A stretch of 64,000 nucleotides of DNA from a virus: the IMG/VR virus record IMGVR_UViG_3300037755_000305, positions 96,001-160,000 of that record; one strand, given 5' to 3'. Shown here one piece after another: positions 9,577 through 61,521 of this stretch. The notes below the pieces were generated by a model. That model saw only the letters and a list, made by a program, of their open reading frames with translations. It ran no database searches and was not told the origin of the DNA. Each line of letters starts with the position of its first letter. Positions within the stretch are counted from its first letter, which is position 1. The position numbers were made by a program, and so were the translations under genes.

Positions 9577-9594
9577 CATGTTGTCTAATGACAT

Positions 9595-11888
<2,294 letters not shown>

Positions 11889-11889
<1 letters not shown>

Positions 11890-12215: not shown

Positions 12216-12255
12216 TTATCGCCAAAGTAATAAGACATTAGACACCTGTAAATCC

Positions 12256-20075
<7,820 letters not shown>

Positions 20076-20083
20076 CTATTGTT

Positions 20084-21019
<936 letters not shown>

Positions 21020-23551: not shown

Positions 23552-23710
23552 TTGTTTTCTCCTATTGTAGTCCAAGAGTGAATAATAACTGGAGTTCTTT
23601 ACACCGTGAGCGTTCAGGTAATCCGAGATAAATCAGCCTCCCCCGCTCAGGGGAGGTAAAGGTGTATCAAGCGGGACGGCCTTCCGACCGTCCCGCTGTC
23701 ATGCTACTTC

Positions 23711-26926: not shown

Positions 26927-27379
26927 TTATCCTCTGTTTTTTCTACCGCGCATCAAAGCGCTTCCATAATCACTTAGAGCACCGCAAGCAGGGCAATGAC
27001 AATTATTGGCGTGATCCGAAGACGTTATATAGGAAAAGGCACAAGAATCGCAAGAATGCAGCAATTTCGAGAACTTAGAGGTAGACAGAGCCTTCTGTAC
27101 ATCCTCGTAAGAGATAGGCCCTTGGTATTTCATGGGCTTACCGTTTAGCGGGCTGAAAATCTCGCTAGTCATGCGCGAAGAGATGGTATTTTCTCCGTCA
27201 GAGAACAATCCATAACTGAAGCCGCCATCCGGGGGCGGACCGAAATATGAATAACCACCTTCTTCACCGATAGGTTCGAGGGCAACGGGTTTTGAAACAT
27301 GTGGGTTATAGTGGTACCCTCCGTGACCGTAACCAACGACCTTCCAGTTAAGCGATTCTGCTAGCTTCTTAGTATACAT
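26927..27379 (-). CDS. zinc-binding head-module protein
   Basis: CDSC...CHCPACG; N-terminal LAESLNWK. Confidence 0.65.
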   Translation of the reverse strand: MYTKKLAESLNWKVVGYGHGGYHYNPHVSKPVALEPIGEEGGYSYFGPPPDGGFSYGLFSDGENTISSRMTSEIFSPLNGKPMKYQGPISYEDVQKALSTSKFSKLLHSCDSCAFSYITSSDHANNCHCPACGALSDYGSALMRGRKNRG

Positions 27380-28137
27380 TACCAGTTAAATTCTCCCACC
27401 ATAGAATAGGACTTGAAAGACTTACCGGGAATGCTGCGCTTCGTAACACTGTTTTCGGCGTCTTCAATGCGCTTAGCGCCCTTGGGTTTCTCGTGTGTCT
27501 TTACGCCCCTGTCTATGATTGACTTTAGACCCCAAGCCGGGTGCTCGCCGTGCTCGCCGTGCTCGCCGGTGTCGTCAAAAGTTTCAGACTTGTGCGTAGA
27601 CCAATTCAATTTTGCTGCTACACTTCCCATCATAGTTCTCTCGTAGTAGTCTCTGTCTCCGCCTCGTTGCCACTGTGGAGGAAGAGGTGCGGTATACTCG
27701 CTAGGGCTATCAATCAAATTTAACAACTGGTCATTAGGAACGTACTCATCGTCCAACATGATTTCGTTTTGGTCATCTTGCATCCAACCCTGGTTATCGG
27801 GTGTTGTGTTCGGGTTGCATTTGCCAATCTTGGGATCTTCTCCCTCTTCGCACGGTCGGGCCTCGGAAACGTCAGTACGCCAGCTCAATAGCTCAGCCAT
27901 AGGAAATCCTACACCTCGATAAGTTTCGTCTATTTGTGTAAGCTCTTCACTGACTGTGTGATCCGTCTTGTGCTTTTCCTTACGATTATAACCTTTTCCG
28001 CCTTTTTTACTGCTTTGTGGTCCGGCACTATTTTGGTTCACATCCTTATGCACTTCACGACTGGCTCGTCGAAGATCCTTAGAGATTTTCGGAGTCTTCT
28101 GTCCGCTGCCTTGTCTTCGTGTAGGTCCCTTTCCCAT
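27379..28137 (-). CDS. low-complexity head-module protein (RPC..CNPN and LNW motifs)
   Basis: 252 aa with a basic N-terminus; coupled to both neighbours. Confidence 0.65.
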   Translation of the reverse strand: MGKGPTRRQGSGQKTPKISKDLRRASREVHKDVNQNSAGPQSSKKGGKGYNRKEKHKTDHTVSEELTQIDETYRGVGFPMAELLSWRTDVSEARPCEEGEDPKIGKCNPNTTPDNQGWMQDDQNEIMLDDEYVPNDQLLNLIDSPSEYTAPLPPQWQRGGDRDYYERTMMGSVAAKLNWSTHKSETFDDTGEHGEHGEHPAWGLKSIIDRGVKTHEKPKGAKRIEDAENSVTKRSIPGKSFKSYSMVGEFNW

Positions 28138-36535: not shown

Positions 36536-36536
36536 A

Positions 36537-41591: not shown

Positions 41592-42569
41592 ATGCTAAGA
41601 AAAGCAGATAATATCCGCACAACCGACGCCCATCAGGTAAATCGGGACAACTGGGCTTTCGATAAAACCCAGGCAAAAGAAGACTTTCCACATGAAGTTG
41701 CTCTGAGAGATTTGGTTCCCCGAATTCAGTCCAGAGCCCGAGATGCTTTGGCTGTGGATCGTGTAGAGACTCTCTTTTTTCAGCGAAAGCTAACAGGTCG
41801 CCGGTGCTCTTGCTTCATCGTGGAATCCTCACCCGACGGACAGTGCCAAACCTGTTACGGCACAGGCATCGTTGGAGGCTATACCAAGTTCGGAACAACC
41901 GATCTCACAATCGACGTTACCAGCCCCAGTCTGCGCTGTGTTAATGTGCGACCGCTCTACGAACTTCAAGCGCGCCCTGTACTTATGGGACTGGACGACA
42001 GCGCCCTAGAGGGTTACATTGAGGTTGACGTGGAAATTCGCCAATCTATAGGGGTTACTGACACCTTCAAATTCGTTGCCAGAACGACATCCCTCACACA
42101 GAACAACAGCATCACACCTCTTGTCCGACGATCGGACGAGACAGACTTTGTTCCTATCACATACGCTAATCTTGATTCCAGACTCAAGTCCCAGAAGCTC
42201 ACGTTCAGGTTCGAGTTCTCTCGGGCGACTCTGAGCGATGCCAATCCAATCATGTCGCATTTCTTTCTCAGGGCCAAGCTCGTGAATGACCTGACAGTTC
42301 GTGTGGACCTTCCTAGGGACCGAGAGAGCATTACTTTGGCAGAGTTCGGAATATACGACTCGTGGACCGTGATTACTGGATACTTCGACAACACTGTACC
42401 AAGAGTTGGCGTAGAAGATTTCGTTTTCCGTTGCAGAGATCAGGAATTATGGAAAGTGGTGGATTCAAGCCCCAATCGACCGCTCAACATCCTTACTAGC
42501 CACGATGTTAGCTTACGTCTAGTGCAGACATTCGAGCCTTACGTGAATGTTCCTATAGGTAAGACCTAA
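41592..42569 (+). CDS. putative neck/head-tail adaptor protein
   Basis: GRRCSC...CQTCYGTG..GGY motif; GGAGG RBS before ATG 41592. Confidence 0.55.
   Translation: MLRKADNIRTTDAHQVNRDNWAFDKTQAKEDFPHEVALRDLVPRIQSRARDALAVDRVETLFFQRKLTGRRCSCFIVESSPDGQCQTCYGTGIVGGYTKFGTTDLTIDVTSPSLRCVNVRPLYELQARPVLMGLDDSALEGYIEVDVEIRQSIGVTDTFKFVARTTSLTQNNSITPLVRRSDETDFVPITYANLDSRLKSQKLTFRFEFSRATLSDANPIMSHFFLRAKLVNDLTVRVDLPRDRESITLAEFGIYDSWTVITGYFDNTVPRVGVEDFVFRCRDQELWKVVDSSPNRPLNILTSHDVSLRLVQTFEPYVNVPIGKT
42513..42569 (+). repeat. 57-nt repeat copy 1 (3' end of the adaptor gene)
   Basis: encodes LRLVQTFEPYVNVPIGKT*; 26-nt core identical to copy 2. Confidence 0.85.
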
Positions 42570-43183
42570 TGAAATTTTGTAGAGGTTGTGAAACAGAGAA
42601 ACCTATTCACGCTTTTTCTAAACGTTCAGATAGTCCCAGTGGGGTACAAGCTAGATGCAAAGCATGCTCTAAAGCGTACATGGATAGGAACAGAGAAAAA
42701 CAAAGAGAAAGGGTTACCAAAAGGCACCATGAAAGAAAAGCTGATGTAGCCTACGTAAAATCCAGAAGAGCCACGTCTGCTGCCTGGAAGAAAAACAACA
42801 AAAACAGGGTGAACGAGGCGTGGCGAATCCGGGACCAAGATAGGCGCAATTCTGACCTTAACTACAGACTTAGGCGCAATATGCGCTCTAGGTTAAAGCG
42901 ATATTTCTCAAACAAAGCTGGTTCCGTGATAACAGATCTTGGGTGCTCCGTTCCCCACCTTATCACCTATTTGGAGGACCAGTGGGAATCCGGCATGTCT
43001 TGGCAGAACTACGGAACAGAGTGGGAAATCGACCACATTGAGCCCTTGGCTATTTTTGACCTAGCTGATAGAAAGCAGTTCTTAAAAGCTTGCCATTACA
43101 GTAACTTACAACCTCTATGGTGTAAAGAACATAGACGTAAGACTGCGAAAGACTTGACAAAAATGCGCAAAATGCGCAAATGA
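42569..43183 (+). CDS. free-standing HNH homing endonuclease
   Basis: CRGC..CKAC N-terminus; WEIDHIEPL..ACHYSNLQPL; visibly AT-richer than flanks. Confidence 0.85.
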   Translation: MKFCRGCETEKPIHAFSKRSDSPSGVQARCKACSKAYMDRNREKQRERVTKRHHERKADVAYVKSRRATSAAWKKNNKNRVNEAWRIRDQDRRNSDLNYRLRRNMRSRLKRYFSNKAGSVITDLGCSVPHLITYLEDQWESGMSWQNYGTEWEIDHIEPLAIFDLADRKQFLKACHYSNLQPLWCKEHRRKTAKDLTKMRKMRK

Positions 43184-43185
43184 CC

Positions 43186-43242
43186 CTAAGACTGGTCCAG
43201 AGCTTCGAGCCTTACGTGAATGTTCCTATCGGGAAGACATAG
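43186..43242 (+). repeat. 57-nt repeat copy 2 (orphan duplicate of the adaptor 3' end)
   Basis: encodes LRLVQSFEPYVNVPIGKT* with alternative codons. Confidence 0.85.
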
Positions 43243-43344
43243 CTTATCTATTCCCTATAAGGCCAAATTGCCCTGTATGCTGATCGGCCTATAGAATGAC
43301 GTTGCCGGCGACAGTCCGGATGCGTTCTAAGGAGAATAGATACA

Positions 43345-44439
43345 ATGGCAACCCGTACACTCAATGCAAAGACAGATCTCACGTATGAAGAGATCTTCGA
43401 GGGATATGCAAACGGCAAGTCCCGGCTACCCAAGGTTCTGAAAGATATCGCAGCAGGCACCGGAACTTTTTCCACACTAGCAAACGATGCTGGTGTGGAC
43501 ATTCTGAGGCGCCGAACAGGCGGAGGTAACTCAGAAAACTCCAGCAATGTTGGTGTTTCTATTTCTTCCCCTGTAGCCAAGCTAATCAGCGCAGCTAGAT
43601 ACAACACGCTTCTAGCAGGTTACGATCCCGTAGGCGGGCAGCCTAGCCAGAACTACATTGATGCAGACGTTCGTGGTGTCACCAAGGACACTTTTGATCT
43701 TCTGGACTTTGTGTCTGGGGTAAACAACAGCGAACAGTCCAAAGGTTCCGGCAACAAACTGTCAACCCGAGCGGCTAAGCTGAAAGCTCAGGGCTCTAAT
43801 GTTGTCACGCGCGATTTCACAGAACTGGTTGCTCTATCTGACCAGGGCTACAATGTTCGAACCAAGTTCGGTGATCGTGTTGGCGGCGGTGGTGCTACGG
43901 GCGAGGTTCACGGCGTTGACCAGGGAATTCCTGGTCTTATCGCTACAGACTCCCAGGCAATTCTCATCGGCGCAACCGGTGAGACCTTCGATATGTCAGG
44001 GGACACTGATATGGATGTCGAGGTTGACAACGCAGGCGTTGATGCCGTAATCTACCCGGCATCTACACTGTCCAGAAGTGCTGTTGTTGCTCTAACCAAC
44101 GGTCAGCTTTCTTCTGGTGAAGCCGTAAGCATCGGCGAGCAAATTGCTCTTCGATCCAGTGGCCTCGGTTCTCAGGGAGAAATCAGTGTAACAGGAGAAA
44201 ACACGGTTCTGGACTTCCCGTTCGGTACTGTGGTAGGGGCTACGGTTGGTGCCTCTTCTTTGTCTACCAACGATACGGTAGTTTCTCTTGGTGCCGCAGC
44301 AGTCAACACTAGGACCAACATCCGATACGGGACCTACCAGTTCGGCGTTCTTCGAATATACACCTCGATCAATGACGCCGCCCCGGTAGCCTACATTCTT
44401 CACCCTGATTTGTTGGACGATCTGGTAGCCAACCAGTAA
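43345..44439 (+). CDS. virion structural protein (unassigned)
   Basis: 364 aa, Gly/Ser/Thr/Val-rich, AAGGAG RBS. Confidence 0.65.
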   Translation: MATRTLNAKTDLTYEEIFEGYANGKSRLPKVLKDIAAGTGTFSTLANDAGVDILRRRTGGGNSENSSNVGVSISSPVAKLISAARYNTLLAGYDPVGGQPSQNYIDADVRGVTKDTFDLLDFVSGVNNSEQSKGSGNKLSTRAAKLKAQGSNVVTRDFTELVALSDQGYNVRTKFGDRVGGGGATGEVHGVDQGIPGLIATDSQAILIGATGETFDMSGDTDMDVEVDNAGVDAVIYPASTLSRSAVVALTNGQLSSGEAVSIGEQIALRSSGLGSQGEISVTGENTVLDFPFGTVVGATVGASSLSTNDTVVSLGAAAVNTRTNIRYGTYQFGVLRIYTSINDAAPVAYILHPDLLDDLVANQ

Positions 44440-44462
44440 GCCGTAGACAGGAGTCTCGGTTT

Positions 44463-45137
44463 ATGGAAGCTGCAAAGCTCGCACAGCGCATTGGCGTGAT
44501 TCTGGCACATACTTTGCTGTCAGAGGCTAGAAAGCCCATTAGCGTATCTTATGAGTCGGACCAGGGTGTAGACATGAGCTACACCCTGTGTTCTGCCTTC
44601 TACGTTCATATGTCTGATTTGCAGAACTTGATGAACATGCCGATTGATTTGTGGATCTCTGTAGTCTACAAACTGAACGAGGCGGGGGATCAAGATCTTG
44701 GGTTCGCAGTAGCACACGAAAAGGTGCCTGCCTGCGAACTCAAGGTCTACCCTCTGCCATCAATCAACTACGCCGCCGAAGCCATTAAGCGTTTCATGGC
44801 ATATAGCATGTTGCCTTACTTCGATATTGACGGTGTAGCAGCCAAGACTAATCTTGCATTTCTACAAGGAAAGTACGGAAAAGCCGATGGATGGGGTGAT
44901 ACAATCACCTTACATATCAAAGCCGAAGACTTTCCTTACGACGTCGATTATGCAGGCGGTGTGTTCAGGGGTTTTTCAGAAAGGCTAATGGAAGCCATGA
45001 AGAGAGACGTAGCCACGGCAATAGGTATCACCGATGATCTTCGTCACAGGGTATATTCAATGGGAAACGAAATTGGGATTGTATTCGTTCCAGAGTCTAC
45101 ATACCTAGCTTCTCGCGAAGTTCCAAAAGAGTTATAG
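44463..45137 (+). CDS. hypothetical protein
   Basis: 224-aa ORF with AGGAG RBS. Confidence 0.7.
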   Translation: MEAAKLAQRIGVILAHTLLSEARKPISVSYESDQGVDMSYTLCSAFYVHMSDLQNLMNMPIDLWISVVYKLNEAGDQDLGFAVAHEKVPACELKVYPLPSINYAAEAIKRFMAYSMLPYFDIDGVAAKTNLAFLQGKYGKADGWGDTITLHIKAEDFPYDVDYAGGVFRGFSERLMEAMKRDVATAIGITDDLRHRVYSMGNEIGIVFVPESTYLASREVPKEL

Positions 45138-45149
45138 GAGTAAATAATC

Positions 45150-46376
45150 GTGGCATTTCTTAGCGAATCTGACGATATCCCGCGAATTTTGACTCGTGGA
45201 ACTTCTCAAGTATTCCGTATTGGCTTCTTTACAGACGGATCTAAATCAACACCACTTATTCCCAAAGACCCGCTAAAGTACCCCTCTTACGAGATTCTTA
45301 GCCCCGATGGCGTCGCTGTCCAAACTGGTGTCCTACAGTCCGATGGCGGTGTTGGAGAATACGCTACCACATGGTTTGTGCCTGACGATGCTGACTTGTC
45401 AAACGCCAACAACCGTTACCAGTTCAAAGCCTTTATCGTTACTAACACTAACGAGCAAGCAGAAATCACGCACGAATTCGATGTTCAGGACGTTGTCGTA
45501 ACGGCGTCTGATGATAGAAGCCAAAGCATCCTAAGTCTGGTAAACAGAGAACTTAGGCTCCAAATTCAGCGCACTTCTAGAATTGATTTAGATGGTGGAG
45601 GTTCTTTGAGCCTGGAGATGATTCTTGGTAGCACTTCCGGAAAGTCTGTAGCTATCGGTCCTGGCGGTCTGTCCAACGTGGTTACACTTGAGAATGGTCA
45701 GATACAGGAAACTCAATATGGAGACAGCTATCTGTATCACTACACGATTCCCGCTGGTGTGCTAAGTATGCCTAACTGTCCTTACATTACACTATGGAGT
45801 ATTCGGGATAACGTTGCTTCGGCTGAAGAGACCCAGTTTCAACTAATTCGGTCGGTTGACGGACCTATTCTGAACATGACCGTGCAGCTACGCCAGATAA
45901 TCGACAAATTTCAAAAACAACGCGGCCGGGTACAAGCATATGAGGACTCAGATTTGGTCGAATATCTCGATCGTGGCTTGGAAATCATCAATGTAACTTA
46001 CCCTATTACAGCTTGGCAGATGTCTTTTATCGGTGGATCTCAGTTCAACTCCTTCATTCTGCTGGCAGCAGCGTGGTACGGTCTCAACGCTCAATACCTA
46101 ATGGAAGTGGATCTGGGGTTCGCTTTTTCTGGACAGACAGTAACACTGGATTATGACCATGCTCCCATGCTGGCTGAGGCCATAAATCGCTTCCGAGATT
46201 ACCTGAACGATGCTGTTAGCCCTGCCAAACTAGGGTTTATACGCGCTACAAGCTCTGTAGGCAGCTTTGCAGGAAAGCCTATGGGGTTCCGGTCCTTGAA
46301 CAGATTCACCTTCCCAATGGGGAACTTTAGTTCTGGCGATATCATGCAGACCCTCAGTAACATTGGTCTTCTCTAG
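45150..46376 (+). CDS. putative neck/connector structural protein
   Basis: Ig-like N-terminus; C-terminal helical domain YEDSDLVEYL..GLEIIN..FSGQTVTLDYD resembling head-completion proteins (recollection). Confidence 0.5.
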   Translation: MAFLSESDDIPRILTRGTSQVFRIGFFTDGSKSTPLIPKDPLKYPSYEILSPDGVAVQTGVLQSDGGVGEYATTWFVPDDADLSNANNRYQFKAFIVTNTNEQAEITHEFDVQDVVVTASDDRSQSILSLVNRELRLQIQRTSRIDLDGGGSLSLEMILGSTSGKSVAIGPGGLSNVVTLENGQIQETQYGDSYLYHYTIPAGVLSMPNCPYITLWSIRDNVASAEETQFQLIRSVDGPILNMTVQLRQIIDKFQKQRGRVQAYEDSDLVEYLDRGLEIINVTYPITAWQMSFIGGSQFNSFILLAAAWYGLNAQYLMEVDLGFAFSGQTVTLDYDHAPMLAEAINRFRDYLNDAVSPAKLGFIRATSSVGSFAGKPMGFRSLNRFTFPMGNFSSGDIMQTLSNIGLL

Positions 46377-46489
46377 TGGGAACCAGAACTCCTGAGCTTT
46401 CCAGAAAATGTCCCACAGAAATTCTGTAGCTTATCTCTAAACGGGGCCCACGGTTGGGCTCTTTTCCACCTTCGAAGGGAGAAATCAAT

Positions 46490-46693
46490 ATGTTGGAATG
46501 GATTGCCGCAAATGGCGAAACAATCGCTATGGTCTGGGCCGCTGTCGTGGCCGTGGCTGAGGTAGCCAAGCGACTTATTCCTGGTACCAAGGACGACACT
46601 ATTATCGTCAAGGTTCTGGATGTGGTTGCCCAGGTACTCACTCTCGGTGGCGTAAAGCTACTGCCCAAGCAGGACGGCGTACTCAAGGGCTAA
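46490..46693 (+). CDS. small holin-like membrane protein
   Basis: 67 aa; hydrophobic helix followed by IPGTKDD..and a second helix. Confidence 0.5.
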   Translation: MLEWIAANGETIAMVWAAVVAVAEVAKRLIPGTKDDTIIVKVLDVVAQVLTLGGVKLLPKQDGVLKG

Positions 46694-46715
46694 GTCCTAT
46701 TTAGGACTACCCACG

Positions 46716-46754
46716 GGGCCAGCCCGGGTTCCCGCCCAGGCTGGCTCTTTTTTT
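46716..46754 (+). terminator. rho-independent terminator
   Basis: gggccagcccggg...cccaggctggctc followed by a run of T. Confidence 0.75.
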
Positions 46755-46764
46755 GGCTGGGGTT

Positions 46765-48522
46765 ATGACATTACAAGCAAAAATCGCAGCGTATCACAAT
46801 GTTGATAGCAACGTAGTCACAATCCAGGTCTACGTAGTCAGCACTGATGATGAATACTATCACCCAGCGGAAGTGGTTTCTGGTGAGGTCCAGATTTTTA
46901 ATGTGTACAGCACACCACAAACGGGTCTTCAGGAAATTGCCTTAGAGAGGGTAACATTTACCAAATCCGCAGCCAATCAGGACGGTTACTTCTCAATATA
47001 CTTCATCAATCCTGCTGTTTCCACAAATCTGGAAGCCAGAGTATCTTTGGATTTGAATGGACAAGGAATCACGACAGGAGTTACCACCGTAAGGAAGGAA
47101 ACCGGTACGTTCTCTGACCAACCGAGCACTTCTGTGATTGGAAACGCGACTAATCGTTCTTGGCACTTGGACAAGAACAAACAGAGGGACGTCCCTTACG
47201 CCGACGAATCTCCGCATAACCCAATCGAATTAGGCGACAACCAAACCGTCACCATTGAACAAGATATCGTAAATACTGTATGGGTTGACATCAATTTTGA
47301 AAAACTCGCTGAGGTGAAATCTGATGCTCAGCTACCGGGACAACTTGTGTATATTGGTGGAGGTGGGAGGCTTCTTCCAAAGCCAGGGTCACTATCGTAT
47401 CAAGCTATAGACACACCTCCCTGGGAACTTGGCACATCTACGTTCACGGAGCAAGGTTCTATACAGCTTTTACCCAATAACACGTACACGGATTCCACCA
47501 CTATTCCGTGCGGCTCTGGTTTCTTTCCTGGGGGCTACACCATGGATTCTCCAGGAATCAATATTATCAAGAGTGGCGTGCAGCATCTACAGGGTGACGG
47601 ATTCGTAGCCAATGCGTGGAGTATTCAACTAAATGGTGCGAGCCCCGCTAGCATATCGCCCTACAGCAAAGCAAGCCTTGGCTTGCTCGAACCTGTTACG
47701 TTTGACGTGACAGAACCTATCGCTCTGTCTTTGCTGGCTGGTATGTCAAAGGTGGCACCAGACAGCGAAATCACGGAAGCCAACCTAGTTCTGAACTTCT
47801 ATGACACCACGGATATTCTATTGTCCTCTAAGACTGTAAGTGTGGCTCCAGCGGATCTATTCAATGCAAGACCCTTGAAGCCATTTAGCATTTCAGCTAA
47901 ACCTTCCGAATATCCAGCCACAACTGAAAAATTCACATGGCGCTTAGAGATCGCCAGTGTTAGCCAAGGGGATTACGTAACTGTGATTACTGCGTTACCT
48001 AGTGTGACGTACACGCCCTTCGCCACATCCCAGGTTCTTTCTGGAGAATCTCGCGCGATTGACAGTCTGTCATTTACTCCTGATGATCCTTTCACTCTGG
48101 AAGAAGGTGCTGTAGTGTTGAACAATGCCATAGGGTTCGAGGTTACACCTACAGAGACCAAATGGTTCTTTGACACCAGGGAATCTGCTGGTCTAACCAG
48201 CGGGGTTGCACTTAGGGTAAACGCTGACGGTACACTTACACTATTCGTTCAAAACTCTACTGAAACTGCTTATGTTTCAACTTCTACGGCTCCTTCGTGG
48301 GTTAGCGGTGAAGTTCACGAAGTTGTAGCTGAATGGAGAACAGATCCTTCCTTGTTGCGGGTTTCAGTAGACGGTGTTACATTGATAGAGAACACCACAA
48401 CAGCTCTCCCGGACATGACCGGAATCACGGCTACCAGTATCCAGATGGGATCAGATTCCCAGGTGGCGGGTAGTTTGGACTCAGAGTTTGTCAGGGCCGT
48501 ATTCCTAAAGAGACCCAGATGA
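46765..48522 (+). CDS. structural protein with C-terminal LamG/ConA-like domain
   Basis: beta-rich, S/T-rich; C-terminal W..GEVHEVVAEW..LRVSVDG. Confidence 0.55.
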   Translation: MTLQAKIAAYHNVDSNVVTIQVYVVSTDDEYYHPAEVVSGEVQIFNVYSTPQTGLQEIALERVTFTKSAANQDGYFSIYFINPAVSTNLEARVSLDLNGQGITTGVTTVRKETGTFSDQPSTSVIGNATNRSWHLDKNKQRDVPYADESPHNPIELGDNQTVTIEQDIVNTVWVDINFEKLAEVKSDAQLPGQLVYIGGGGRLLPKPGSLSYQAIDTPPWELGTSTFTEQGSIQLLPNNTYTDSTTIPCGSGFFPGGYTMDSPGINIIKSGVQHLQGDGFVANAWSIQLNGASPASISPYSKASLGLLEPVTFDVTEPIALSLLAGMSKVAPDSEITEANLVLNFYDTTDILLSSKTVSVAPADLFNARPLKPFSISAKPSEYPATTEKFTWRLEIASVSQGDYVTVITALPSVTYTPFATSQVLSGESRAIDSLSFTPDDPFTLEEGAVVLNNAIGFEVTPTETKWFFDTRESAGLTSGVALRVNADGTLTLFVQNSTETAYVSTSTAPSWVSGEVHEVVAEWRTDPSLLRVSVDGVTLIENTTTALPDMTGITATSIQMGSDSQVAGSLDSEFVRAVFLKRPR

Positions 48523-51500
48523 GAGTAGAAGCGACAAAAGACGCCATGGTCCAGGCATTCGCTCGGGCAATCGAAGCCCAGGGTGGCAAGGCGCTTTTGG
48601 TCGGGGGGCTCGTGCGTGATGAAATTTTGGGGCTGCCTTCGAAGGATTACGATTTCGAAGTTTTTGGGCTTCCAATGAAAAAAGTTCAGCAGATCCTTTC
48701 CCAGTTCGGGAACGTGAAGGAAGTAGGGCAGCAGTTTGGTGTTCTGAACATCCAAGAGCTTGATTGGGACGTTGCTCTTCCCCGCAGGGAGATGAAGACC
48801 GGAGAGGGGCACAAGGGATTCGATGTGGTCCCAGACCCCACCATGAGCATCGAAGATGCCGCCCGCAGGCGAGACCTAACTATCAACGCTTTGTCGAAAG
48901 ATCCGCTTACCGGCGAAATCATCGACCCGTTGAATGGTATAGCGGACCTTGAGGACGGAATTCTGCGTATGGCGGACCCAAATACCTTCGGCGATGACCC
49001 TCTACGAGCCCTCAGGGTGGCCCAGTTCGCCGCTCGTTTCGATTTCGATGTAGACCCAGCAACCCTTGCCGTTGTCGCAGCACAGCCTCTTGAGGAGCTT
49101 CCAGGGGAGCGAATTCTGCCGGAGTTCTCCAAGATGCTTCTGAAGGGCAAAAAACCGAGCCGAGGCATAGAGGTTATGCGACGTGCTAATCTGTTACGCT
49201 ATTTCCCGGAAATAGAGGCTCTACAGGGTGTTCCGCAGGACGCTATCCACCACCCCGAGGGGGACGTGTACGTCCATACGCTAATGGTGCTGGATGAGGC
49301 AGCAAAAGAACGCACAGGGGACCCAGCATTCGATCTTCCACTGATGTTTGGAGCACTGTGTCACGACTTTGGAAAGCCTGAGTTCACCCAGCACGTCGAG
49401 GACCGCATCAAGTCCCACGGACATGAAGAAGGCGGCGAAGCGCCCACTCGCGAGTTCTTACAGAGAATGAAGGCCCCGAATGAGCTGACCGAGCAGGTTG
49501 CCACGCTCGTAAGCACACATCTACGTCCGCAGCTAATGGCCGGAACCGGAGGCCGAAAAGGATACCGGAAGCTAAGCCGTCTGTTGTCGGACGCTAACGT
49601 GAGCCCTGAGTTGCTGGCCGCTGTTTCGAAGGCGGACAGTCTAGGACGTACCACGGAATCTGCGTTACGCCGAGATACTTCCCGGCAGGACCAGTTCCTT
49701 CAGGAGTACAATGAGCACGTTACTTCTCAGGCTCCTGCGGGCGGCAAGCTCGTGGACTCTGTTTCAGGTAAGCACCTAATCGCGAAAGGCTTCAAGCCCG
49801 GACCCGACATGGGTAAGTTCCTTGCTCTGACTCGTTCGATCGAAGACGAGACAGGAATCTCGAACCCCGACAAGCTAATCGAATTGGCTACCCGTTTTTT
49901 GAGTGATCGCTCGGAGGGGAGCGGTTCTCAAAAGAAGGAGAATCCTAACGATTGTGGGGATTCCCACATTCGTCCTGGCGAAGAGTGCTTCGACGGAGAT
50001 TATCGCGAAGAGCGCAAAAAAGGCAATACCAAAAGTACCCTAGCCGACGGTCTTGATTGGACTGTTAGTCGTCCTTGCGGTGACGATGAAAGTTATCCCG
50101 ATAAGTGTACAGGTCCGGGGTCCGAGCAGCAGTGGGAATTGCCTCCTGATCCGCCGCCATATCAAAAAGGAGACGAACTGGCACTTCCGCCTGAGCTTGA
50201 AGAAAAATCTCCTGTCCAGCCTAAATTGGGACCAGATGCTTGGGATCTTCCGTTTACCGACGAAGAGCTAAACAATCCTAAGCAGAAAGCTGCTGACGAG
50301 AAGATGCTAAAGAAGGTTGAAAAGGAACAGCAGAAGAAAGACCAGTCAGCAGACAGGGCAGGACAAGATCTTGAGAAGGCTGGGGATAAGGCTATAAGGG
50401 ATGCCAAAAAACTACAGGAGCAGGATGCCGCAAAGAAGGACAAAGAGCTGGAACAACGACGAAAAATTTCCGATCGAGATGCTCTAAAGAAAGAAAAAGA
50501 GTGGCAGAAGAATCGTAAACTTCAAGAGAAGGATACCGCACAGCAAGCTAAGAAGGCAGACATGGCTAAAAAAGCTGCTGAAAAAGAAGCGCAGAAAGAA
50601 GCTTTGAAACAGCAGAAGCTTGATGAGAAAGCTAAGAACGATGCTGCTAAGCAAGCTGCAAAGTTGACCAAAGAACAAGAACAGGGGCTCAAGAAAGCCG
50701 AGCAAGATTACAATAAGTGGCTAGCTACCACACCTAAGACACAAGTTCCTCAAGGCATGGATTTCCAAGCATGGTTGAAGTACGTCCTTTTGGGTCCGGA
50801 AGAGAACTCCAAGAGTGGAAGACAAATAAATAAGTTACACCAACCTAATAAAGGTACTCAGCCTTCCCTAAGTGCTTTGGCAGGAAAAGGTCCCAGCGGA
50901 TTCCGAACGAACCCTGACCCTACAGAGGACGATTTTTTGCTGTGGCACACATTCGAATGGCCTGCCGATCAGAAAGGCAAATCCCAACACCCTGGTCTGG
51001 CTGGGCTGGCGTTGGGAGATCCGCGCCCATGCTATCCTGAAGAAACCCCAGAAGAGGGGCACTGTAACCCAAACATTTCTCCCCAAACACCGGGAAGTGG
51101 CAATGAACTATCTGAGCACGACTTGACACTTATTCGAGACCAAGCCCGCCTTCAACACGCGGAAACTCCAGAGCAGATCCAAGGATTGACCGATGCCTGG
51201 AAAGCTGCGAAGTCTGTGGTACATACTAACCCAGAAATCTTATCCGACCCAGAAGCTACGGAAAATCTCGCTCTCCAGTTGGTTACCACAATGGAACCTA
51301 GAAACCAAGGGCGCTACAGGCACGTACCTGTGACGTTCGGTCCCGGAAAGCCTCCTGGATTGGACCCGGATCGTGTACCTCGCGCTATGGAATCTCTGTT
51401 CATGGCGTATTCAGAGCAATTATTGGAGCCGGATGAGTGGTATCACGAGTTCCAGAAGGTGCATCCATTCGAAGATGGAAACGGTCGTGTAGGTGATCTT

Positions 51501-52991
51501 CTATGGAAGATGGACAAAGTTCGACGCGGAGAGCCGTGGCCCAACACGCATCCGCCGGATTTCTTCGGAACAGACAAGAGTGACTATACGGCAGAGGTTA
51601 CTGCCGAGCCGCAACGACTACACAAGCGCACCACTAACTACCCTGGAGTAAAGGATTTCGATCGTGGTACTCGTTTTTCTAAACATCCCCTAGAGGGTCC
51701 GTTCGGACGTGACGGATTCGGCGGCTCTACGCCTCTTCCACAGAAAGAACTGGAATCTGGACCTAACGGTATGACGCCAGAAACAGGAATCTTCCCAGAT
51801 TGGACTGGATCGGGTATGCACGGGCACGGACAGCCGGATAAGGCACCCACACGACCTCATGAACATATGAATCCAGAAACCTCTCCAACTGATCCAAACG
51901 ATTATGAGAAAGGGATAGACTATTTGGATTGGGATGAATCTCCGACACACTCAGATGTTGGTCCGGATAATAGGGAACCGTTTCCCGGTGCTGACGAATT
52001 CCCGAAATCAGAGCCGCCGAACGACAAAGGTGCTGGCTTTCTAGCCACACAGTTGCCGTTCCCACAACTTTTGGACACGGACACACCACACCCATCCCCC
52101 GCACGAAGTGCTGAGGAGTCTCCGCCTTCCAGCTTCCCTGGACAAGTTGTACGGAAGCCGGGTGGTGGTGGATTGGACAGAGCGCCGATGCGCAGACCGG
52201 TTGGCAAGCCTTCTGGTACGGGCTTTTTGCCCGTACAGAATACTCCTGCTCCAGATCAGAACATGTTCAAAGCTGATCTTGATCCGTCTAAGGTCCCTGG
52301 TCCTGGAGGACAAAACCCGGGCGGCAAACACCTGGACCGGCAGCGAGGCGGGCGCGGCGGTGGAACGAAGATTCGTCCGCATTTCGATTACGACTACACA
52401 GGCAAGAAACCCGGGTTCCAGTCTATCGACTTGCCTACAGAGCACGTTTATCCTGCCGACGTCGAAGCCGCCAGAACCATGGAAGATCTAATGGATATAG
52501 ACTCTGTTTTCCCCAAGGATTACAATCCTGAATGGGGTCCGACGAAGCCAGAAATGGGCGGAACACCAAGACATCGTAACGAAAGACACGTTGCGCCCGA
52601 TCCCATCAAAGAGCCTTTCGTGCCCGAAGAGCTTATCGCAGACGACGACGCCAACATAGAACAAAAACAGGTTCAACCTCTGGTCCCGAACCAGAAGATG
52701 GCGATTGCTGTAGACCCTAACGGTCCTATGGGCGAGCGCATCGTAATCATGTCGCCGCTATTCGAGGAAGCCAGCCCAGCTATTATGGCGCTTAGATCCC
52801 ACAGATTTGAGCGTCATGGCGGTGTCGTCATTGACGGTCCTCCTCAATGGCTTCTGGGGATTACGCCACGCCTGGAAGCTCTTGACCGCTCTTCTGGTCA
52901 CGAAGGAGCAGACGATCTGTTCGCCCGCGTGATGCAGCTCATTCAATCTGCTGGGATGCCTATCGAGTACGAACAAGAGCCCAGACCGTAA
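48519..52991 (+). CDS. cca: CCA-adding tRNA nucleotidyltransferase (with HD domain) fused to a coiled coil, a Fic domain and long Pro-rich regions
   Basis: GGLVRD, DYD, RRDLTINAL, DDPLR, HHPEGDV..H, CHDFGK in about aa 1-465; GRYRHVPV..HPFEDGNGR Fic motif near 51462. Confidence 0.88.
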   Translation: MRVEATKDAMVQAFARAIEAQGGKALLVGGLVRDEILGLPSKDYDFEVFGLPMKKVQQILSQFGNVKEVGQQFGVLNIQELDWDVALPRREMKTGEGHKGFDVVPDPTMSIEDAARRRDLTINALSKDPLTGEIIDPLNGIADLEDGILRMADPNTFGDDPLRALRVAQFAARFDFDVDPATLAVVAAQPLEELPGERILPEFSKMLLKGKKPSRGIEVMRRANLLRYFPEIEALQGVPQDAIHHPEGDVYVHTLMVLDEAAKERTGDPAFDLPLMFGALCHDFGKPEFTQHVEDRIKSHGHEEGGEAPTREFLQRMKAPNELTEQVATLVSTHLRPQLMAGTGGRKGYRKLSRLLSDANVSPELLAAVSKADSLGRTTESALRRDTSRQDQFLQEYNEHVTSQAPAGGKLVDSVSGKHLIAKGFKPGPDMGKFLALTRSIEDETGISNPDKLIELATRFLSDRSEGSGSQKKENPNDCGDSHIRPGEECFDGDYREERKKGNTKSTLADGLDWTVSRPCGDDESYPDKCTGPGSEQQWELPPDPPPYQKGDELALPPELEEKSPVQPKLGPDAWDLPFTDEELNNPKQKAADEKMLKKVEKEQQKKDQSADRAGQDLEKAGDKAIRDAKKLQEQDAAKKDKELEQRRKISDRDALKKEKEWQKNRKLQEKDTAQQAKKADMAKKAAEKEAQKEALKQQKLDEKAKNDAAKQAAKLTKEQEQGLKKAEQDYNKWLATTPKTQVPQGMDFQAWLKYVLLGPEENSKSGRQINKLHQPNKGTQPSLSALAGKGPSGFRTNPDPTEDDFLLWHTFEWPADQKGKSQHPGLAGLALGDPRPCYPEETPEEGHCNPNISPQTPGSGNELSEHDLTLIRDQARLQHAETPEQIQGLTDAWKAAKSVVHTNPEILSDPEATENLALQLVTTMEPRNQGRYRHVPVTFGPGKPPGLDPDRVPRAMESLFMAYSEQLLEPDEWYHEFQKVHPFEDGNGRVGDLLWKMDKVRRGEPWPNTHPPDFFGTDKSDYTAEVTAEPQRLHKRTTNYPGVKDFDRGTRFSKHPLEGPFGRDGFGGSTPLPQKELESGPNGMTPETGIFPDWTGSGMHGHGQPDKAPTRPHEHMNPETSPTDPNDYEKGIDYLDWDESPTHSDVGPDNREPFPGADEFPKSEPPNDKGAGFLATQLPFPQLLDTDTPHPSPARSAEESPPSSFPGQVVRKPGGGGLDRAPMRRPVGKPSGTGFLPVQNTPAPDQNMFKADLDPSKVPGPGGQNPGGKHLDRQRGGRGGGTKIRPHFDYDYTGKKPGFQSIDLPTEHVYPADVEAARTMEDLMDIDSVFPKDYNPEWGPTKPEMGGTPRHRNERHVAPDPIKEPFVPEELIADDDANIEQKQVQPLVPNQKMAIAVDPNGPMGERIVIMSPLFEEASPAIMALRSHRFERHGGVVIDGPPQWLLGITPRLEALDRSSGHEGADDLFARVMQLIQSAGMPIEYEQEPRP

Positions 52992-53011
52992 GTTCTCGTT
53001 ATCTTTCCAGT

Positions 53012-53632
53012 ATGGGATTTTTCAATTGGATTCTAGAGTTGTTTGGTGCTGTACAGGCTGAAAAGCCTGCTGTGCAAACCCCTGTGTCTCCGACCAATTT
53101 ATCACCAAGCGTAACACAGGAGGAGCCCAAAATGGACAAATTCGATATAGCTATGAAATTCACCCTAAAATGGGAAGGTGGTTACAACGATATTCCAGAA
53201 GATCCTGGTGGCGAGACCAATTTCGGTATAGCAAAAAGATCTCACCCAGAAGTAGACATCAAAAATCTAACAGAAGAAAAAGCAAAGGAAATTTACCGAA
53301 AGGATTACTGGAACAAAATTAGCGGCGACAATCTTCCACCTTCCGTGGCATTGGCTGTGATGGACTACGCCGTAAACTCAGGCGTTAGCCGTTCCGCCAA
53401 AACCTTACAAAAAATAGTGGGAGCCGTAGCCGATGGAGCTATAGGTCCTGCAACATTGAAGAAGGTAGTTGCAGCAGTAGAGAAGAAAGGAGAGCTTGGC
53501 GTAGCTCAAGATGTAGTAATGGAAAGAGTAGGTTTCCTTTGTAAACTGGTGAAAAGCAAACCAGAAATGTCTGTATTTTTGCACGGATGGATGAAAAGGA
53601 CTCATCAGTGCATGGCTGAGGTTTCGAAATAA
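53012..53632 (+). CDS. endolysin, glycoside hydrolase family 108 with peptidoglycan-binding domain
   Basis: WEGGY...EDPGGETNFGI; D.AVNSG; F..GW..R. Confidence 0.88.
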   Translation: MGFFNWILELFGAVQAEKPAVQTPVSPTNLSPSVTQEEPKMDKFDIAMKFTLKWEGGYNDIPEDPGGETNFGIAKRSHPEVDIKNLTEEKAKEIYRKDYWNKISGDNLPPSVALAVMDYAVNSGVSRSAKTLQKIVGAVADGAIGPATLKKVVAAVEKKGELGVAQDVVMERVGFLCKLVKSKPEMSVFLHGWMKRTHQCMAEVSK

Positions 53633-53937
53633 TGTCCCATTCTTCTGTAGTTGTAAATCGTAGGGGTAGGCTTATTGTTAGACGCAATTTAGTATTGTGG
53701 CTGGATGCTTCAGACGAAAGTACCATTAGCTCTTCAGGAGACAAAGTTGATTCGTGGTCTGACAAAAGTGGCGTAAACTTAACAGGCTTGTTTGAACCGT
53801 TCGACTCTATGTTTAGACCTGATTACGCATTGGTAGGTAATAGAATCAATGGCTTGAACACAGTTACTTTTGTGCAAGAATCTGGGCCCGCTTCTCCGGC
53901 ACAAGCTCTTCAAAGCCAACCTGGAAAAATCTATTAG
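53632..53937 (+). CDS. N-terminal fragment of a LamG-like protein
   Basis: LVLWLDASDESTI...VDSWSDKSG; continues in the -1 frame. Confidence 0.65.
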   Translation: MSHSSVVVNRRGRLIVRRNLVLWLDASDESTISSSGDKVDSWSDKSGVNLTGLFEPFDSMFRPDYALVGNRINGLNTVTFVQESGPASPAQALQSQPGKIY

Positions 53938-53963
53938 GGGCGGACGGAGGAACCATATTTTGT

Positions 53964-55922
53964 GTGATAGAGAGTGATCTTTCTCAAAACTCTTTTACCA
54001 CTACGACGACTACGCCAACAACAACAACCAGCACTTATACTACAACATCTCCAGACAACGGCTATTTTTTTTGGAAGGGTAACCTATCAGACTTTTCCCC
54101 AGATTACACGTTAGATCCAACTAATTTTGAATGGGAAATTGAAGGTGAAGAAGATTATGGACAGACTCCGTTGGGTTTGCTTCCTGGCCCTGAACTAACA
54201 CCTAGCATTTTAATGGCGCGCATAGACGGAATAGAGGATAGTTCTATAGGTTCTGAGAACGGTGTGGTGGGTTCCCTCGGGACTGGACTATGGTCCGAAA
54301 AAGCTGCATCTGATGTGAATTCTCCTCATTTCTTGGGTTCCGCTTTTGACCAAGACGTAGAAGAGGTGTACGCGGGCTTTTTTGGGTCTATTGCAGAAAT
54401 TTTAGTTTATGACAGCCCACTTACTAGTAGCGAAATAAATAAAATTGAAACATACCTTTCTATAAAATGGGGAATTCCTTTACTTAATTTATTTGAACGC
54501 TCTATTTTACCCGCTGATACTAGTTTCCAAATGAGTACGGGAGATGAAATAAATGTAGGTATATTTAACGAATGGTCTATAATGTTCAGATCTAAGAGGG
54601 GAGAATCCTCTGCCGAAGAGTTGGACGAAGCTATTTGGATAGACATTTTGGACTTTGACGATAATAGCTCTAGAATAACAGTAACAAATGATGATTCAAC
54701 GTCAGGTGACGGTGTTAGGTACATGGAAGTTAGAGCATACGATACGGACAGCGAGAGCAACGGACTATTACAAGCATATAGATTTCCTCCAGACATTTCT
54801 TTCGGTCCTTGGGAATTGTTTATCATTACGTACGATGGGACTAGGGCAGCCAACAACAGAATTAAATTGTATAAGCCTAGAACAGAAGACACTACTGCCA
54901 TAGAGCAGTCTTTAGGGGGCTCAAATACTGGAGCCCCTGTTGGCGAAGCCTTTGTAGACGATTCTATAACTATGACTAATACAACAAGGGCGATAACTTT
55001 TAGAAGTAACCAAACTAAAAATCAACACGCTATTTGGAACAGAGTTCTAACAGATGAGGAAATAGTTTATATTGGTCGAAACATTGGAATGGACTTAAAT
55101 CGGGATTCCGACCCCGGTCAAGTAGTTATACAAGAAACAGGAACACTAACAAGCCCTTCAACAGGAGCGGCTTTAAACACATCGGAATTTCTTCCGCCTC
55201 CTACAACATCAGACACAGTAAATATGGTGGGATACACGTTAAGTGTAACAAGCGGTACCGGTTCGGGCAACAGTTTTGTAGTAGGAGCACAAGAACCTAC
55301 GGGATCAAATTCTGGACCTATGATACTTGGAGAAACTAATCAACTCATGGGTATCATTGCAGCAGATCAAAGCGGTATGAGTAGTTCACAAATTCGTATA
55401 GATTCTGCTATTTTTGGATCATTTCCCATGACTGTAGATGAACACGTTGGAAGAGTTTTGGTTTTCAAAAAAGTTAATGAAGATCCATTTTATGTGGAAA
55501 GCGGAGTAATCATAAGCAATACAGACACTACTGTAACTGTGTCGGCTCCGTGGACAGTTACGCCAAGCGGTGCTCCTGATCCATTTGAGGAGAGTGCTCC
55601 TATAGTCTCAATATGGGACCCTTTGGGATTCTCTTTAGATGATACATCCGTATACAATCTATCAAACGAAGTTATAGGTTCTTACGGGGCTGCCGGAAAT
55701 TTGACACACTGGTACAGACCAGGTTTTGATGAAAATAACATAGGTAAGGATTACAGCCAGCTTGCTTTTGATGCAGGGGAAACTGCTGACATGTCTACGC
55801 CTCCAGGACCTCCTGGTGTTATTACGAATAGCGGATTCGCCAATCAAGAAGATTTGGTAGTAGAAGACATACCAGAACCTACGATAGATGGGGTTCCTAA
55901 CAACGGGCAGGGCGGATTTTGA
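53964..55922 (+). CDS. LamG/ConA-like multidomain protein (C-terminal part)
   Basis: GSIAEILVYD..LT.SEI.KIE.YLS.KWG closes the first LamG fold; second LamG-like domain; Thr-rich linker. Confidence 0.7.
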   Translation: MIESDLSQNSFTTTTTTPTTTTSTYTTTSPDNGYFFWKGNLSDFSPDYTLDPTNFEWEIEGEEDYGQTPLGLLPGPELTPSILMARIDGIEDSSIGSENGVVGSLGTGLWSEKAASDVNSPHFLGSAFDQDVEEVYAGFFGSIAEILVYDSPLTSSEINKIETYLSIKWGIPLLNLFERSILPADTSFQMSTGDEINVGIFNEWSIMFRSKRGESSAEELDEAIWIDILDFDDNSSRITVTNDDSTSGDGVRYMEVRAYDTDSESNGLLQAYRFPPDISFGPWELFIITYDGTRAANNRIKLYKPRTEDTTAIEQSLGGSNTGAPVGEAFVDDSITMTNTTRAITFRSNQTKNQHAIWNRVLTDEEIVYIGRNIGMDLNRDSDPGQVVIQETGTLTSPSTGAALNTSEFLPPPTTSDTVNMVGYTLSVTSGTGSGNSFVVGAQEPTGSNSGPMILGETNQLMGIIAADQSGMSSSQIRIDSAIFGSFPMTVDEHVGRVLVFKKVNEDPFYVESGVIISNTDTTVTVSAPWTVTPSGAPDPFEESAPIVSIWDPLGFSLDDTSVYNLSNEVIGSYGAAGNLTHWYRPGFDENNIGKDYSQLAFDAGETADMSTPPGPPGVITNSGFANQEDLVVEDIPEPTIDGVPNNGQGGF

Positions 55923-60288: not shown

Positions 60289-61521
60289 TTACCCCTTCAC
60301 GCACAAGACTTGTTTAAGCGTATGCTTGATTTCCACCAAAGACTCTTGAGCCTTCATCACACTGTCAATAGACTTATACGCACCAGGGGTTTCATCCAAA
60401 ACTCCAATGTCTTTTCTACATTCCACGCCCTCGGTAGCAGCAATGTGGTCGTCCAGCGTAAATTGTTTCTTGGCCGCAGAACGACTCATCACTCTCCCAG
60501 CACCATGCGAACACGAGTCGAAGCTTTCCGGGTTGCCCTTGCCCTCTACAATGAACGACTTAGCGCCCATCGAACCCGGGATGATTCCCATGACACCCTT
60601 GCGAGCGCACACAGCTCCCTTGCGGGTCAACCACACGTTGTCTCCGTAGTGGTTCTCGCGAGTAGTGTAGTTGTGGTGACAGTTGACGGCAACATCGTGC
60701 GTCAATAGCTTCTTCTGCGGAACTCCGCCCTCACGCTTCAGCGCGTCGAAAACCTGAACCACCATGAGATCACGATTGATGCGAGCAAAGTCCTGCCCCC
60801 ACTCCATAGCCTCGATGTAGTCATCGAAATACTGAGTGCCTTCCGGCAAGTACGCCAAGTCACGGTCCGGGAGGTGAATGAAATGCTTCGACATCTCTTC
60901 CTTCGCCAAATCCGTGAAGTATCGGCCGATAATGTTACCCGGACCACGGCTTCCCGAGTGTAGCATCAGCCACACGCGATCAGCCTCGTCCAAGCAAATC
61001 TCGATGAAGTGATTCCCGCTGCCCAGCGTACCTAGCTGCAAGGAAGCCGCCTTGTGGAAGATAGACTTGTGCTTCGCCAAAATGTTCTGGTAGCGAGCGT
61101 CCAACTTGTTGGCCCATGCTAGAGCATGCGTCTTCGGAACATCGCCCGAAGCGTATCCACCCTTGTTGTGGGAAGCCCCCTTGACAGCGCCAGTCGGAAC
61201 AGCGTGCTCGATAGCCGAACGCCAGCCCTTCAAGTTTGTCGGAAGGTCAGTGGACTCCATGCCCGTCCGTACGGCGACCATGCCGCAGCCAATATCGACC
61301 CCGACCGCAGACGGTATAATAGCCCCTTTCGTTGGAATGACTGAGCCTACAGTGGCCCCAAAACCAAAGTGGCAATCAGGCATGACGGCGACGTGCTTGT
61401 GGATGAACGGCAGAGATGCAACATTACGCAACTGTCCCAGAGCGGCTTCTTCGACCGGAACGCCCTTCGTGAATGCCTTGATCGGCACAAGGCCACCCTG
61501 ATAAACGTCAAAATCACTCAT
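60289..61521 (-). CDS. rtcB: RNA-splicing/repair ligase RtcB
   Basis: MPDCH.G.GATVG, AVGVDIGCGM, LGTLGSGNHFIE, MLHSGSRG, CHHNY, SCSHGAGR, DETPGAYK. Confidence 0.95.
   Translation of the reverse strand: MSDFDVYQGGLVPIKAFTKGVPVEEAALGQLRNVASLPFIHKHVAVMPDCHFGFGATVGSVIPTKGAIIPSAVGVDIGCGMVAVRTGMESTDLPTNLKGWRSAIEHAVPTGAVKGASHNKGGYASGDVPKTHALAWANKLDARYQNILAKHKSIFHKAASLQLGTLGSGNHFIEICLDEADRVWLMLHSGSRGPGNIIGRYFTDLAKEEMSKHFIHLPDRDLAYLPEGTQYFDDYIEAMEWGQDFARINRDLMVVQVFDALKREGGVPQKKLLTHDVAVNCHHNYTTRENHYGDNVWLTRKGAVCARKGVMGIIPGSMGAKSFIVEGKGNPESFDSCSHGAGRVMSRSAAKKQFTLDDHIAATEGVECRKDIGVLDETPGAYKSIDSVMKAQESLVEIKHTLKQVLCVKG

Follow-up and report, generated by a model that had tools for sequence, protein, structure and literature searches.

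A jumbo-phage CCA-adding enzyme with a long disordered extension and an inserted Asp-type Fic domain: a candidate for modular tRNA and translation protection

The 1490-amino-acid (aa) protein P0001 is encoded at 48519–52991 on the plus strand of a 64,000-nt stretch of viral DNA (the window), which covers bases 96001–160000 of the IMG/VR virus record IMGVR_UViG_3300037755_000305. The source contig (G000) is a 184-kb IMG/VR viral contig, 69% complete by CheckV estimate. In this protein, a class II CCA-adding enzyme with an HD domain is followed by a long Pro/Gly-rich extension, into which a charged helix-like stretch and a minimal Fic domain are inserted, and by a small C-terminal domain. On balance, we think it probable that the gene encodes a modular protein for the protection of tRNA and translation. 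An earlier note on this DNA had described the gene as a polyvalent protein inside the structural operon, with a CCA-adding enzyme fused to a coiled coil and a non-canonical Fic domain. The parts of the protein are as follows.

48519..49913, plus strand: class II CCA-adding enzyme with HD domain (aa 1–465)
49953..49988, plus strand: conserved Cys...Cys motif CGDSHIRPGEEC (aa 479–490), directly after the enzyme
50073..50888, plus strand: insertion 1 (aa 519–790), an RPC-x9-C hairpin followed by a Lys/Ala/Gln/Glu-rich helix-like stretch
50889..51008, plus strand: conserved extension island GPSxFRTxPD...HPGLA (aa 791–830), identity 0.56
51009..51602, plus strand: insertion 2 (aa 831–1028), an RPC-x10-C hairpin and a minimal Fic domain
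51462..51497, plus strand: Fic signature HPFEDGNGRVGD (aa 982–993), within insertion 2
51603..52649, plus strand: conserved disordered Pro/Gly-rich extension (aa 1029–1377; P15 G12 D9 %)
52650..52988, plus strand: C-terminal alpha/beta domain (aa 1378–1490)

The open reading frame (ORF) is one genuine gene, as the earlier note had taken it to be, with zero stops in 1490 codons. A 12.5-kb contig from a different JGI sample (L011) matches window positions 42519–54109 with 99.957% identity, five single-nucleotide polymorphisms (SNPs) and no gaps; three of the five SNPs fall inside the gene, two of them synonymous and one changing Gly992 to Asp (G992D). A contig fragment, P0100, bridges the junction between the Fic domain and the extension with identical sequence. 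Because L011 and P0100 match the gene, the weakness that the earlier note had itself named, a missed stop or an assembly chimera, is ruled out, and the order of the parts is kept in frame in relatives despite indels. With three independent contigs in agreement, it is vanishingly improbable that the parts are separate genes joined by a chimera, a missed stop or a frameshift.

Judged from its motifs, the region of aa 1–465 is an intact class II CCA-adding/HD enzyme, in agreement with the earlier note. Pfam assigned PolyA_pol (PF01743) to aa 26–150 (5e-18), PolyA_pol_RNAbd to aa 175–234 and HD (PF01966) to aa 251–375 (27.9 bits, cut-off 22), and PHROG 2244 (tRNA nucleotidyltransferase) matched aa 24–436 (1e-81). 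The metal-binding motif GGxVRD...DxD of the head domain is present as LVGGLVRDEILG...DYDFEV and is near-invariant across the homolog alignment. Class II CCA-adding enzymes are further defined by motif B (RRD) and the nucleotide-selecting motif D ((E/D)DxxR), which are found here as ARRRDLTINAL and GDDPLRALR, respectively. Residues R117, R118, D119, D160 and R163 are kept in at least 90% of homologs, the HD residues H245, D249, H253, H282 and D283 are invariant among the aligned homologs, and the neck and body RNA-binding domains and the overall fold of a class II enzyme are present as well. This gene is the sole member of the PolyA_pol family in G000, and the relative G001 likewise has one only.

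Class II CCA enzymes of the E. coli Cca type and those of PHROG 2244 in Vi01-like, rhizobial and vibrio phages have the same head, neck and body domains, the same catalytic GGxVRD/DxD, RRD, (E/D)DxxR and HD motifs, and the same presumed role in tRNA 3'-end repair in tRNA-rich phages. In contrast, when the whole protein was compared by tblastn with 50,697 phage records, all matches (483/483) were confined to the CCA part (aa ~10–450), and none has a 500–1000-aa extension, the C-terminal domain or a Fic insert.

The extension and the C-terminal domain are a family trait. A query with aa 470–1490 retrieved 17 homologs of 854–1359 aa, all of which start with a CCA enzyme except the N-terminally truncated P0011. 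Thus, an architecture of CCA/HD enzyme, disordered Pro/Gly-rich extension of 400–500 aa and alpha/beta C-terminal domain of ~110 aa is common to ~20 jumbo-phage proteins, with a mean identity in the homolog alignment of 0.74 for the enzyme and 0.69 for the C-terminal domain. An AlphaFold2 (AF2) model of P0005 has a folded CCA part, a disordered stretch of ~414 aa with a predicted local distance difference test (pLDDT) score of about 30–40, and a folded C-terminal domain. Directly after the enzyme, C479, G480, D481, S482, H483, I484, R485, G487, E488 and C490 of the Cys...Cys motif are invariant in 18 sequences, and short motifs recur within aa 1029–1377 (AEPQRxHxR, RDGFGGS, PGGGGLDRAPM, TGKKxGFxSI, ARTMED and HRNER). 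From these sequences, the join of CCA enzyme, extension and C-terminal domain is always kept, a permanent feature of a clade of jumbo phages distant from PaBG. The question raised by the earlier note, whether homologs share the architecture, is therefore answered in part: the 17 homologs share the enzyme, the extension and the C-terminal domain, whereas the Fic domain and the charged helix are lineage-specific insertions.

The C-terminal domain has been found almost nowhere else. An exhaustive phmmer search with aa 1029–1490 against 1.84 billion representatives returned 11 representatives, all of the protein's own family. A profile search with the C-terminal domain found 32 carriers, of which the long ones are CCA fusions only, besides fragments at contig ends; neither the profile search of longer proteins nor phmmer revealed any other cargo, and a comparison of the domain with the ESM Atlas gave no match. 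Stand-alone copies are rare. One of them, P0097 (120 aa, L027:450-1107), lies directly upstream of a GH108-type lysin, and the adjacency of domain and lysin thus persists without a CCA enzyme. Other members of the family bear DUF5661 inserts elsewhere in the linker; a literature search found no papers on DUF5661 or on a CCA-Fic fusion.

Insertion 1 has a gap fraction of 0.92 in the family alignment, with shorter forms in P0003 and P0004 only. Its composition (K24/A15/Q13/E10/D9 %) has few hydrophobic positions and resembles a single charged helix more than the coiled coil proposed in the earlier note, although no coiled-coil test was run. Both insertions are flanked by Cys-hairpins, and a similar hairpin (RPC-x10-C-NPN) is found in a charged protein of the head region.

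27379..28137, minus strand: 252-aa charged protein, directly downstream of the prohead protease, with the RPC-x10-C-NPN hairpin at 27781–27867

The match between this hairpin and those of the two insertions has an E-value of 9e-5, and in the 252-aa protein it sits in an indel that the G001 homolog is without. Every CCA fusion has a related Cys...Cys motif, and so do stand-alone phage Fic proteins; near the N-terminus of the latter is a motif akin to CGDSHIRPGEEC, PCGDHFISKDMEC. An origin of the Cys-hairpins as DNA-level repeats was considered and ruled out, because codon usage differs among the copies.

Insertion 2 has a gap fraction of 0.98 in the family alignment, and the Fic insertion is therefore unique to this lineage. 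The Pfam match to Fic (PF02661) at aa 927–993 is marginal (25.1 bits, cut-off 24). The AF2 model of the insert has a pLDDT of 88.3 and a predicted template-modelling score (pTM) of 0.80, with seven helices, against six to eight in Fic cores generally, and its last fold element is one helix past the motif. The top Foldseek matches of this model are all Fic proteins, the best being FICD (6i7j; E 2.6e-5, TMq 0.50), and a PDB profile search of the insert also found FICD (6e-11), with the flap segment included. The nine-residue catalytic core, defined as HxFx(D/E)GNGR (PMC4177925), is intact as HPFEDGNGR at aa 982–990. The Fic domain with a non-canonical motif seen in the earlier note is thus genuine.

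The deviation lies in the tail of the motif, where Asp993 replaces the second Arg of HPFx(D/E)GNGRxxR, the residue in contact with the ATP gamma-phosphate; the full signature of a canonical AMPylating enzyme is not found. What the earlier note had presented as a local Arg-to-Asp substitution is subfamily-wide. Searching with the Fic insert found 68 proteins, and among the 69 members of the subfamily the tail xxR has become xGD in 60, while none has Arg at the last position (0/69). Since Asp is present in 60/69 members and Arg in none, the residue is not a sign of decay; on this alignment, Asp is a defining trait of a minimal Fic subfamily and not a lesion. The jumbo-phage homologs are either stand-alone proteins of 216–271 aa or Fic-cupin fusions of 331–359 aa, with 55–76% identity, and the remaining homologs are 143–243 aa long with 27–50% identity; those with a source name belong to Patescibacteria. 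There, the Fic gene is chromosomal, with GlmM, bactofilin/DUF8173, LemA, HtpX or HtrA, and ClpB as recurrent neighbours, and no antitoxin gene is evident beside it. Visual inspection of the insert and of the A2/A4 consensus revealed no inhibitory (S/T)xxxE(G/N) motif, though no dedicated search was run.

Compared with FICD/HYPE (6i7j) and the class II bacterial Fic proteins, the insert has in common the alpha-helical core, the flap segment and the HxFx(D/E)GNGR loop (PMC4177925). It differs from them in the family-wide Asp, in its end one helix past the motif and in a TM score of only ~0.5. In Doc and AnkX, deviations in the Fic motif redirect the chemistry (PMC4177925). The SNP G992D lies at window position 51493 (L011:8975) and changes the signature to HPFEDGNGRV[G>D]D; the Gly is invariant in 69 family members, and this is the sole amino-acid difference between the window contig and L011 (five SNPs in 11.6 kb).

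The stand-alone relatives of this Fic domain provide a clue to its origin. In five relative loci (including two near-identical pairs), a stand-alone Fic gene is located inside a dense tRNA island, the largest of which, in L004, contains 28 tRNA genes and a transfer-messenger RNA (tmRNA) gene in 20 kb. The genes flanking the L004 Fic have homologs at 169–183 kb of G000, which is the tRNA island of G000. At this syntenic site, ~19–20 kb past the end of the window, a decayed stand-alone Fic was identified (G000:C1:179170-179944, minus strand). It includes a 103-aa ORF (G000:179633-179944, minus strand) that begins with MLRKSNKPYTDRTTRKRW, a leader as in the stand-alone Fic proteins, and its similarity to them (tblastn E 1e-7) extends past two stop codons as far as what is left of the flap region. 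Neither a stand-alone nor an inserted Fic is present in the relative G001. Because stand-alone Fic genes reside in the islands of relatives and a decayed copy remains here, the comparison of loci indicates that the Fic moved from the tRNA island onto the sole CCA enzyme of the phage, and its place on that enzyme would in turn tie it to tRNA and translation biology. The Fic leader (MLRxSxxPY) was also considered as a shared capsid-targeting signal and was ruled out by its single occurrence in G000.

The islands themselves are rich in other genes. Those of L004, L022 and L024 hold 17–28 tRNA genes in 6–20 kb, and in L004 (18634-18993 and the island around it) the tmRNA gene (tag GEEYAQAA), a tubulin homolog and DDAH-like, RNaseH-like and Macro-like genes lie among the tRNAs. 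No tubulin homolog was found in G000 or G001. Immediately to the right of the window, G000 has 29 tRNA genes, and as 28/29 of them already encode CCA, the CCA enzyme would serve in 3'-end repair and not in maturation. A second RNA-repair gene lies 7 kb downstream of P0001.

60289..61521, minus strand: RtcB RNA ligase

In L003, RtcB and an RNA ligase are also near the homolog of the CCA fusion. Both CCA enzymes and RtcB are known among the RNA-repair components of jumbo phages, where a role of the former in tRNA repair has been described (PMC7824862). As in the phage RNA-repair sets (T4 Pnkp/Rnl; jumbo-phage RtcB, Rnl and CCA; PMC7824862), the CCA and RtcB genes are here no more than 8 kb apart and belong to a phage with 29 tRNA genes; unlike in those sets, the repair enzyme is tethered to a protein-modifying enzyme and a putative docking domain.

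The gene resides in a late block of 41.5–56.5 kb on the plus strand. The order of this block is a 345-aa gene, an endonuclease VII/HNH-like gene, 364-aa and 224-aa genes, a 408-aa connector-like gene, a 589-aa gene and the CCA fusion, which is followed by an endolysin, two LamG-like genes and a sulfotransferase-like gene. The closest neighbours are the following.

45150..46376, plus strand: 408-aa connector-like gene (PHROG 17327, 6e-18; 37% identity to PaBG gp291)
46753..48522, plus strand: 589-aa gene, upstream of and ATGA-coupled to the CCA fusion; possibly a LamG/ConA-like virion protein (a Laminin_G_3 lead)
53012..53632, plus strand: endolysin (GH108 and PG_binding_3), directly after the CCA fusion

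The ATG of the CCA fusion overlaps the stop of the 589-aa gene as ATGA at 48519–22. The coupling claimed in the earlier note is therefore real, while the description of the upstream gene as structural depends on the Laminin_G_3 lead; the 589-aa protein has no match in PHROGs, Pfam, the phage collection or PDB, and the 408-aa and 345-aa proteins gave no PDB matches either. The endolysin does follow the gene, as had been stated. The order of the block recurs in the relatives L002, L003 and L011. PaBG has its endolysin directly after the connector gene, which marks the 589-aa gene and the CCA fusion as additions that this clade made to a late neck/lysis block. In a promoter and terminator scan of 41–57 kb, promoter-like sites were no commoner than background, and no internal terminator was convincing. 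The placement inside the structural operon, as the earlier note put it, holds insofar as this is a late block running from a connector-like gene to the endolysin; the main structural module spans 7.5–36.6 kb on the opposite strand.

34541–36592, minus strand: terminase
30842–34216, minus strand: portal
28144–28884, minus strand: prohead protease
22418–23575, minus strand: major capsid protein
7588–21019, minus strand: collagen-like fibres

The terminase is ~32% identical to those of the jumbo myoviruses PaBG, NCTB, Y3 and phiRSL1, and a search for near-identical DNA among cultured phages found none. Several other genes in these blocks are of note. Two endonuclease VII/HNH-like genes (PHROG 1035) interrupt the late blocks, one at 42569–43183 (plus strand), after the 345-aa and before the 364-aa gene of the connector block, and the other at 21598–22254 (minus strand). 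Between the portal and prohead protease genes (29869–30840, minus strand) lies the gene of a 323-aa protein with an Fe/Mn superoxide dismutase (SOD) C-terminal domain (PF02777, 6.8e-15), and such an enzyme gene within a head module is unusual. Another head-module protein of 764 aa (24483–26777, minus strand) has a sub-threshold EncFtn-like (encapsulated ferritin) lead (E 0.0024, 18 bits, cut-off 27) and also matches a PHROG annotated as 'ATPase', which is likewise a lead only.

These data suggest how the protein may work. The CCA enzyme would repair damaged tRNA 3' ends by re-adding CCA, with the HD domain healing the ends, alongside RtcB. With its HxFxDGNGR core and flap both kept, the Fic module is a probable transferase, and the group passed to a protein linked to translation or tRNA would contain a nucleotide or a phosphate. 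Because of the family-wide Asp and the loss of the helices after alpha5, its donor and chemistry are expected to be unlike those of classical ATP-dependent AMPylation. The extension and the C-terminal domain may serve as a flexible tether by which the enzymes dock to a partner; the charged helical spacer and the minimal Fic enzyme are the two modules that this lineage has inserted into the extension. We consider action in the infected cytoplasm certain if the protein is made, and additional incorporation into virions is possible but doubtful.

Several points weigh against this interpretation. The late-block placement between a connector-like gene and an endolysin is odd for a purely cytoplasmic repair enzyme, and the neighbours of the Patescibacteria Fic genes point to the envelope and proteostasis, not to tRNA. 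The SNP G992D could mean relaxed constraint on the Fic insert, and the fold search for the C-terminal domain ran on a full-length model dominated by the CCA part. The target and donor of the Fic module are pure inference, and all the functional roles are read from the sequence of an uncultured phage.

Along the lines proposed in the earlier note, the protein might be incorporated into the virion, with the C-terminal domain docked to the neck, portal or capsid interior, and ejected with the DNA, so that tRNA repair and the Fic enzyme act before phage gene expression, maybe after cleavage by the prohead protease at the Cys-hairpins. The ATGA-coupled gene in a conserved late block of connector-like, LamG-like, CCA-fusion and endolysin genes would suit this, a long disordered tether could pass through the tail channel, and the RPC-x10-C-NPN hairpin flanking both insertions recurs in the 252-aa protein beside the prohead protease. 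The head module itself encodes the Fe/Mn-SOD-like enzyme between portal and protease, and virion proteins of the PaBG group are proteolytically processed (PMC7412058). However, the tblastn search of the phage records gave no homolog in any cultured phage or in any phage with a virion proteome, and the C-terminal domain, never being attached to other cargo, is not a generic delivery module. No N-terminal targeting leader shared with other proteins was found, the gene is not beside a portal or MuF gene, and its block also holds the non-structural endolysin. The hairpin of the head protein is an indel absent from the G001 homolog, while the stand-alone Fic relatives with the same hairpin are encoded in tRNA islands and not in structural modules. 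We therefore regard a virion-incorporated protein as a tentative and rather unlikely alternative. Its fullest form, a virion-borne, ejected tRNA-repair enzyme with a new Asp-type Fic site, which would act ahead of phage gene expression, forestalling tRNA-targeting abortive-infection nucleases and modifying a host translation factor, is a little more doubtful again. If it were true, the Cys-hairpins would mark processing or packaging junctions, and the protein would be the first described case of a phage injecting an RNA-repair activity.

The composition of the extension allows a different role for it, in which the Gly/Pro/Arg-rich segments (RDGFGGS, PGGGG, GRGGG) would form an RNA-binding or condensate scaffold, a cytoplasmic tRNA-repair hub of tRNAs, CCA enzyme, Fic and partners such as RtcB, with oligomerisation mediated by the C-terminal domain. 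Conserved short motifs within an otherwise disordered extension, the nearly exclusive association of the C-terminal domain with the CCA enzyme, the heavy investment in tRNA (29 tRNA genes and RtcB) and the recruitment of the Fic from a tRNA island are all compatible with such a hub. Its support is compositional only, Pfam and PHROG searches show no RNA-binding domain in the extension, and the late-block location is left unexplained; we judge it improbable. Less probable still is that the CCA enzyme alone matters and that a tolerant linker has recently picked up the Fic as a passenger, functionally irrelevant or decaying, as may be suspected from an insertion found in a single lineage, from linkers of relatives that tolerate DUF5661 and charged-helix inserts, and from the only non-synonymous SNP striking an invariant Gly of the motif. 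Against this, the reading frame is intact, all the catalytic-core residues are kept, identity to the stand-alone homologs is 60–76% and the fold is predicted with confidence. Moreover, the stand-alone Fic of the phage has decayed, and the inserted domain is thus the only functional copy in the sequenced part of the genome.

The term 'polyvalent protein' can be applied to the gene product only as a loose analogy. What it has in common with the polyvalent proteins (Iyer et al., 2017; PMC5512222) is its giant size, its phage origin, the joining of more than one enzyme and a plausible role in host-virus conflict. Unlike them, it has no portal or MuF adjacency, as the portal gene is on the opposite strand and the neighbours are connector-like, LamG-like and endolysin genes, and it is mostly a disordered tether and not a string of catalytic domains. 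The text of the polyvalent-protein survey mentions neither Fic nor CCA domains (PMC5512222). Encapsidated internal proteins of the T4/phiKZ type are recognised by a common N-terminal capsid-targeting leader and by cleavage sites for the prohead protease. In the present protein, the conserved CCA enzyme begins at the N-terminus itself and the search for a common leader gave none, although a Cys-hairpin recurs in the protein beside the protease.

Both kinds of enzyme, the CCA-adding enzymes of phages and the Fic enzymes, are familiar. What appears to be new is that, in a clade of giant phages, the single enzyme for tRNA-end repair is permanently tied to a long disordered extension and to a putative docking domain of its own, the partner of which would reveal the site of phage tRNA repair. 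New as well is a compact Asp-type Fic subfamily in jumbo phages and Patescibacteria, a candidate for a new Fic chemistry. The evolutionary trace of Fic relocation from a tRNA island to the CCA enzyme likewise appears to be new and hints that the Fic module acts on the translation/tRNA system. Together with the other tRNA-related oddities of this phage, these features suggest a picture of a virus that may run much of its own tRNA economy.

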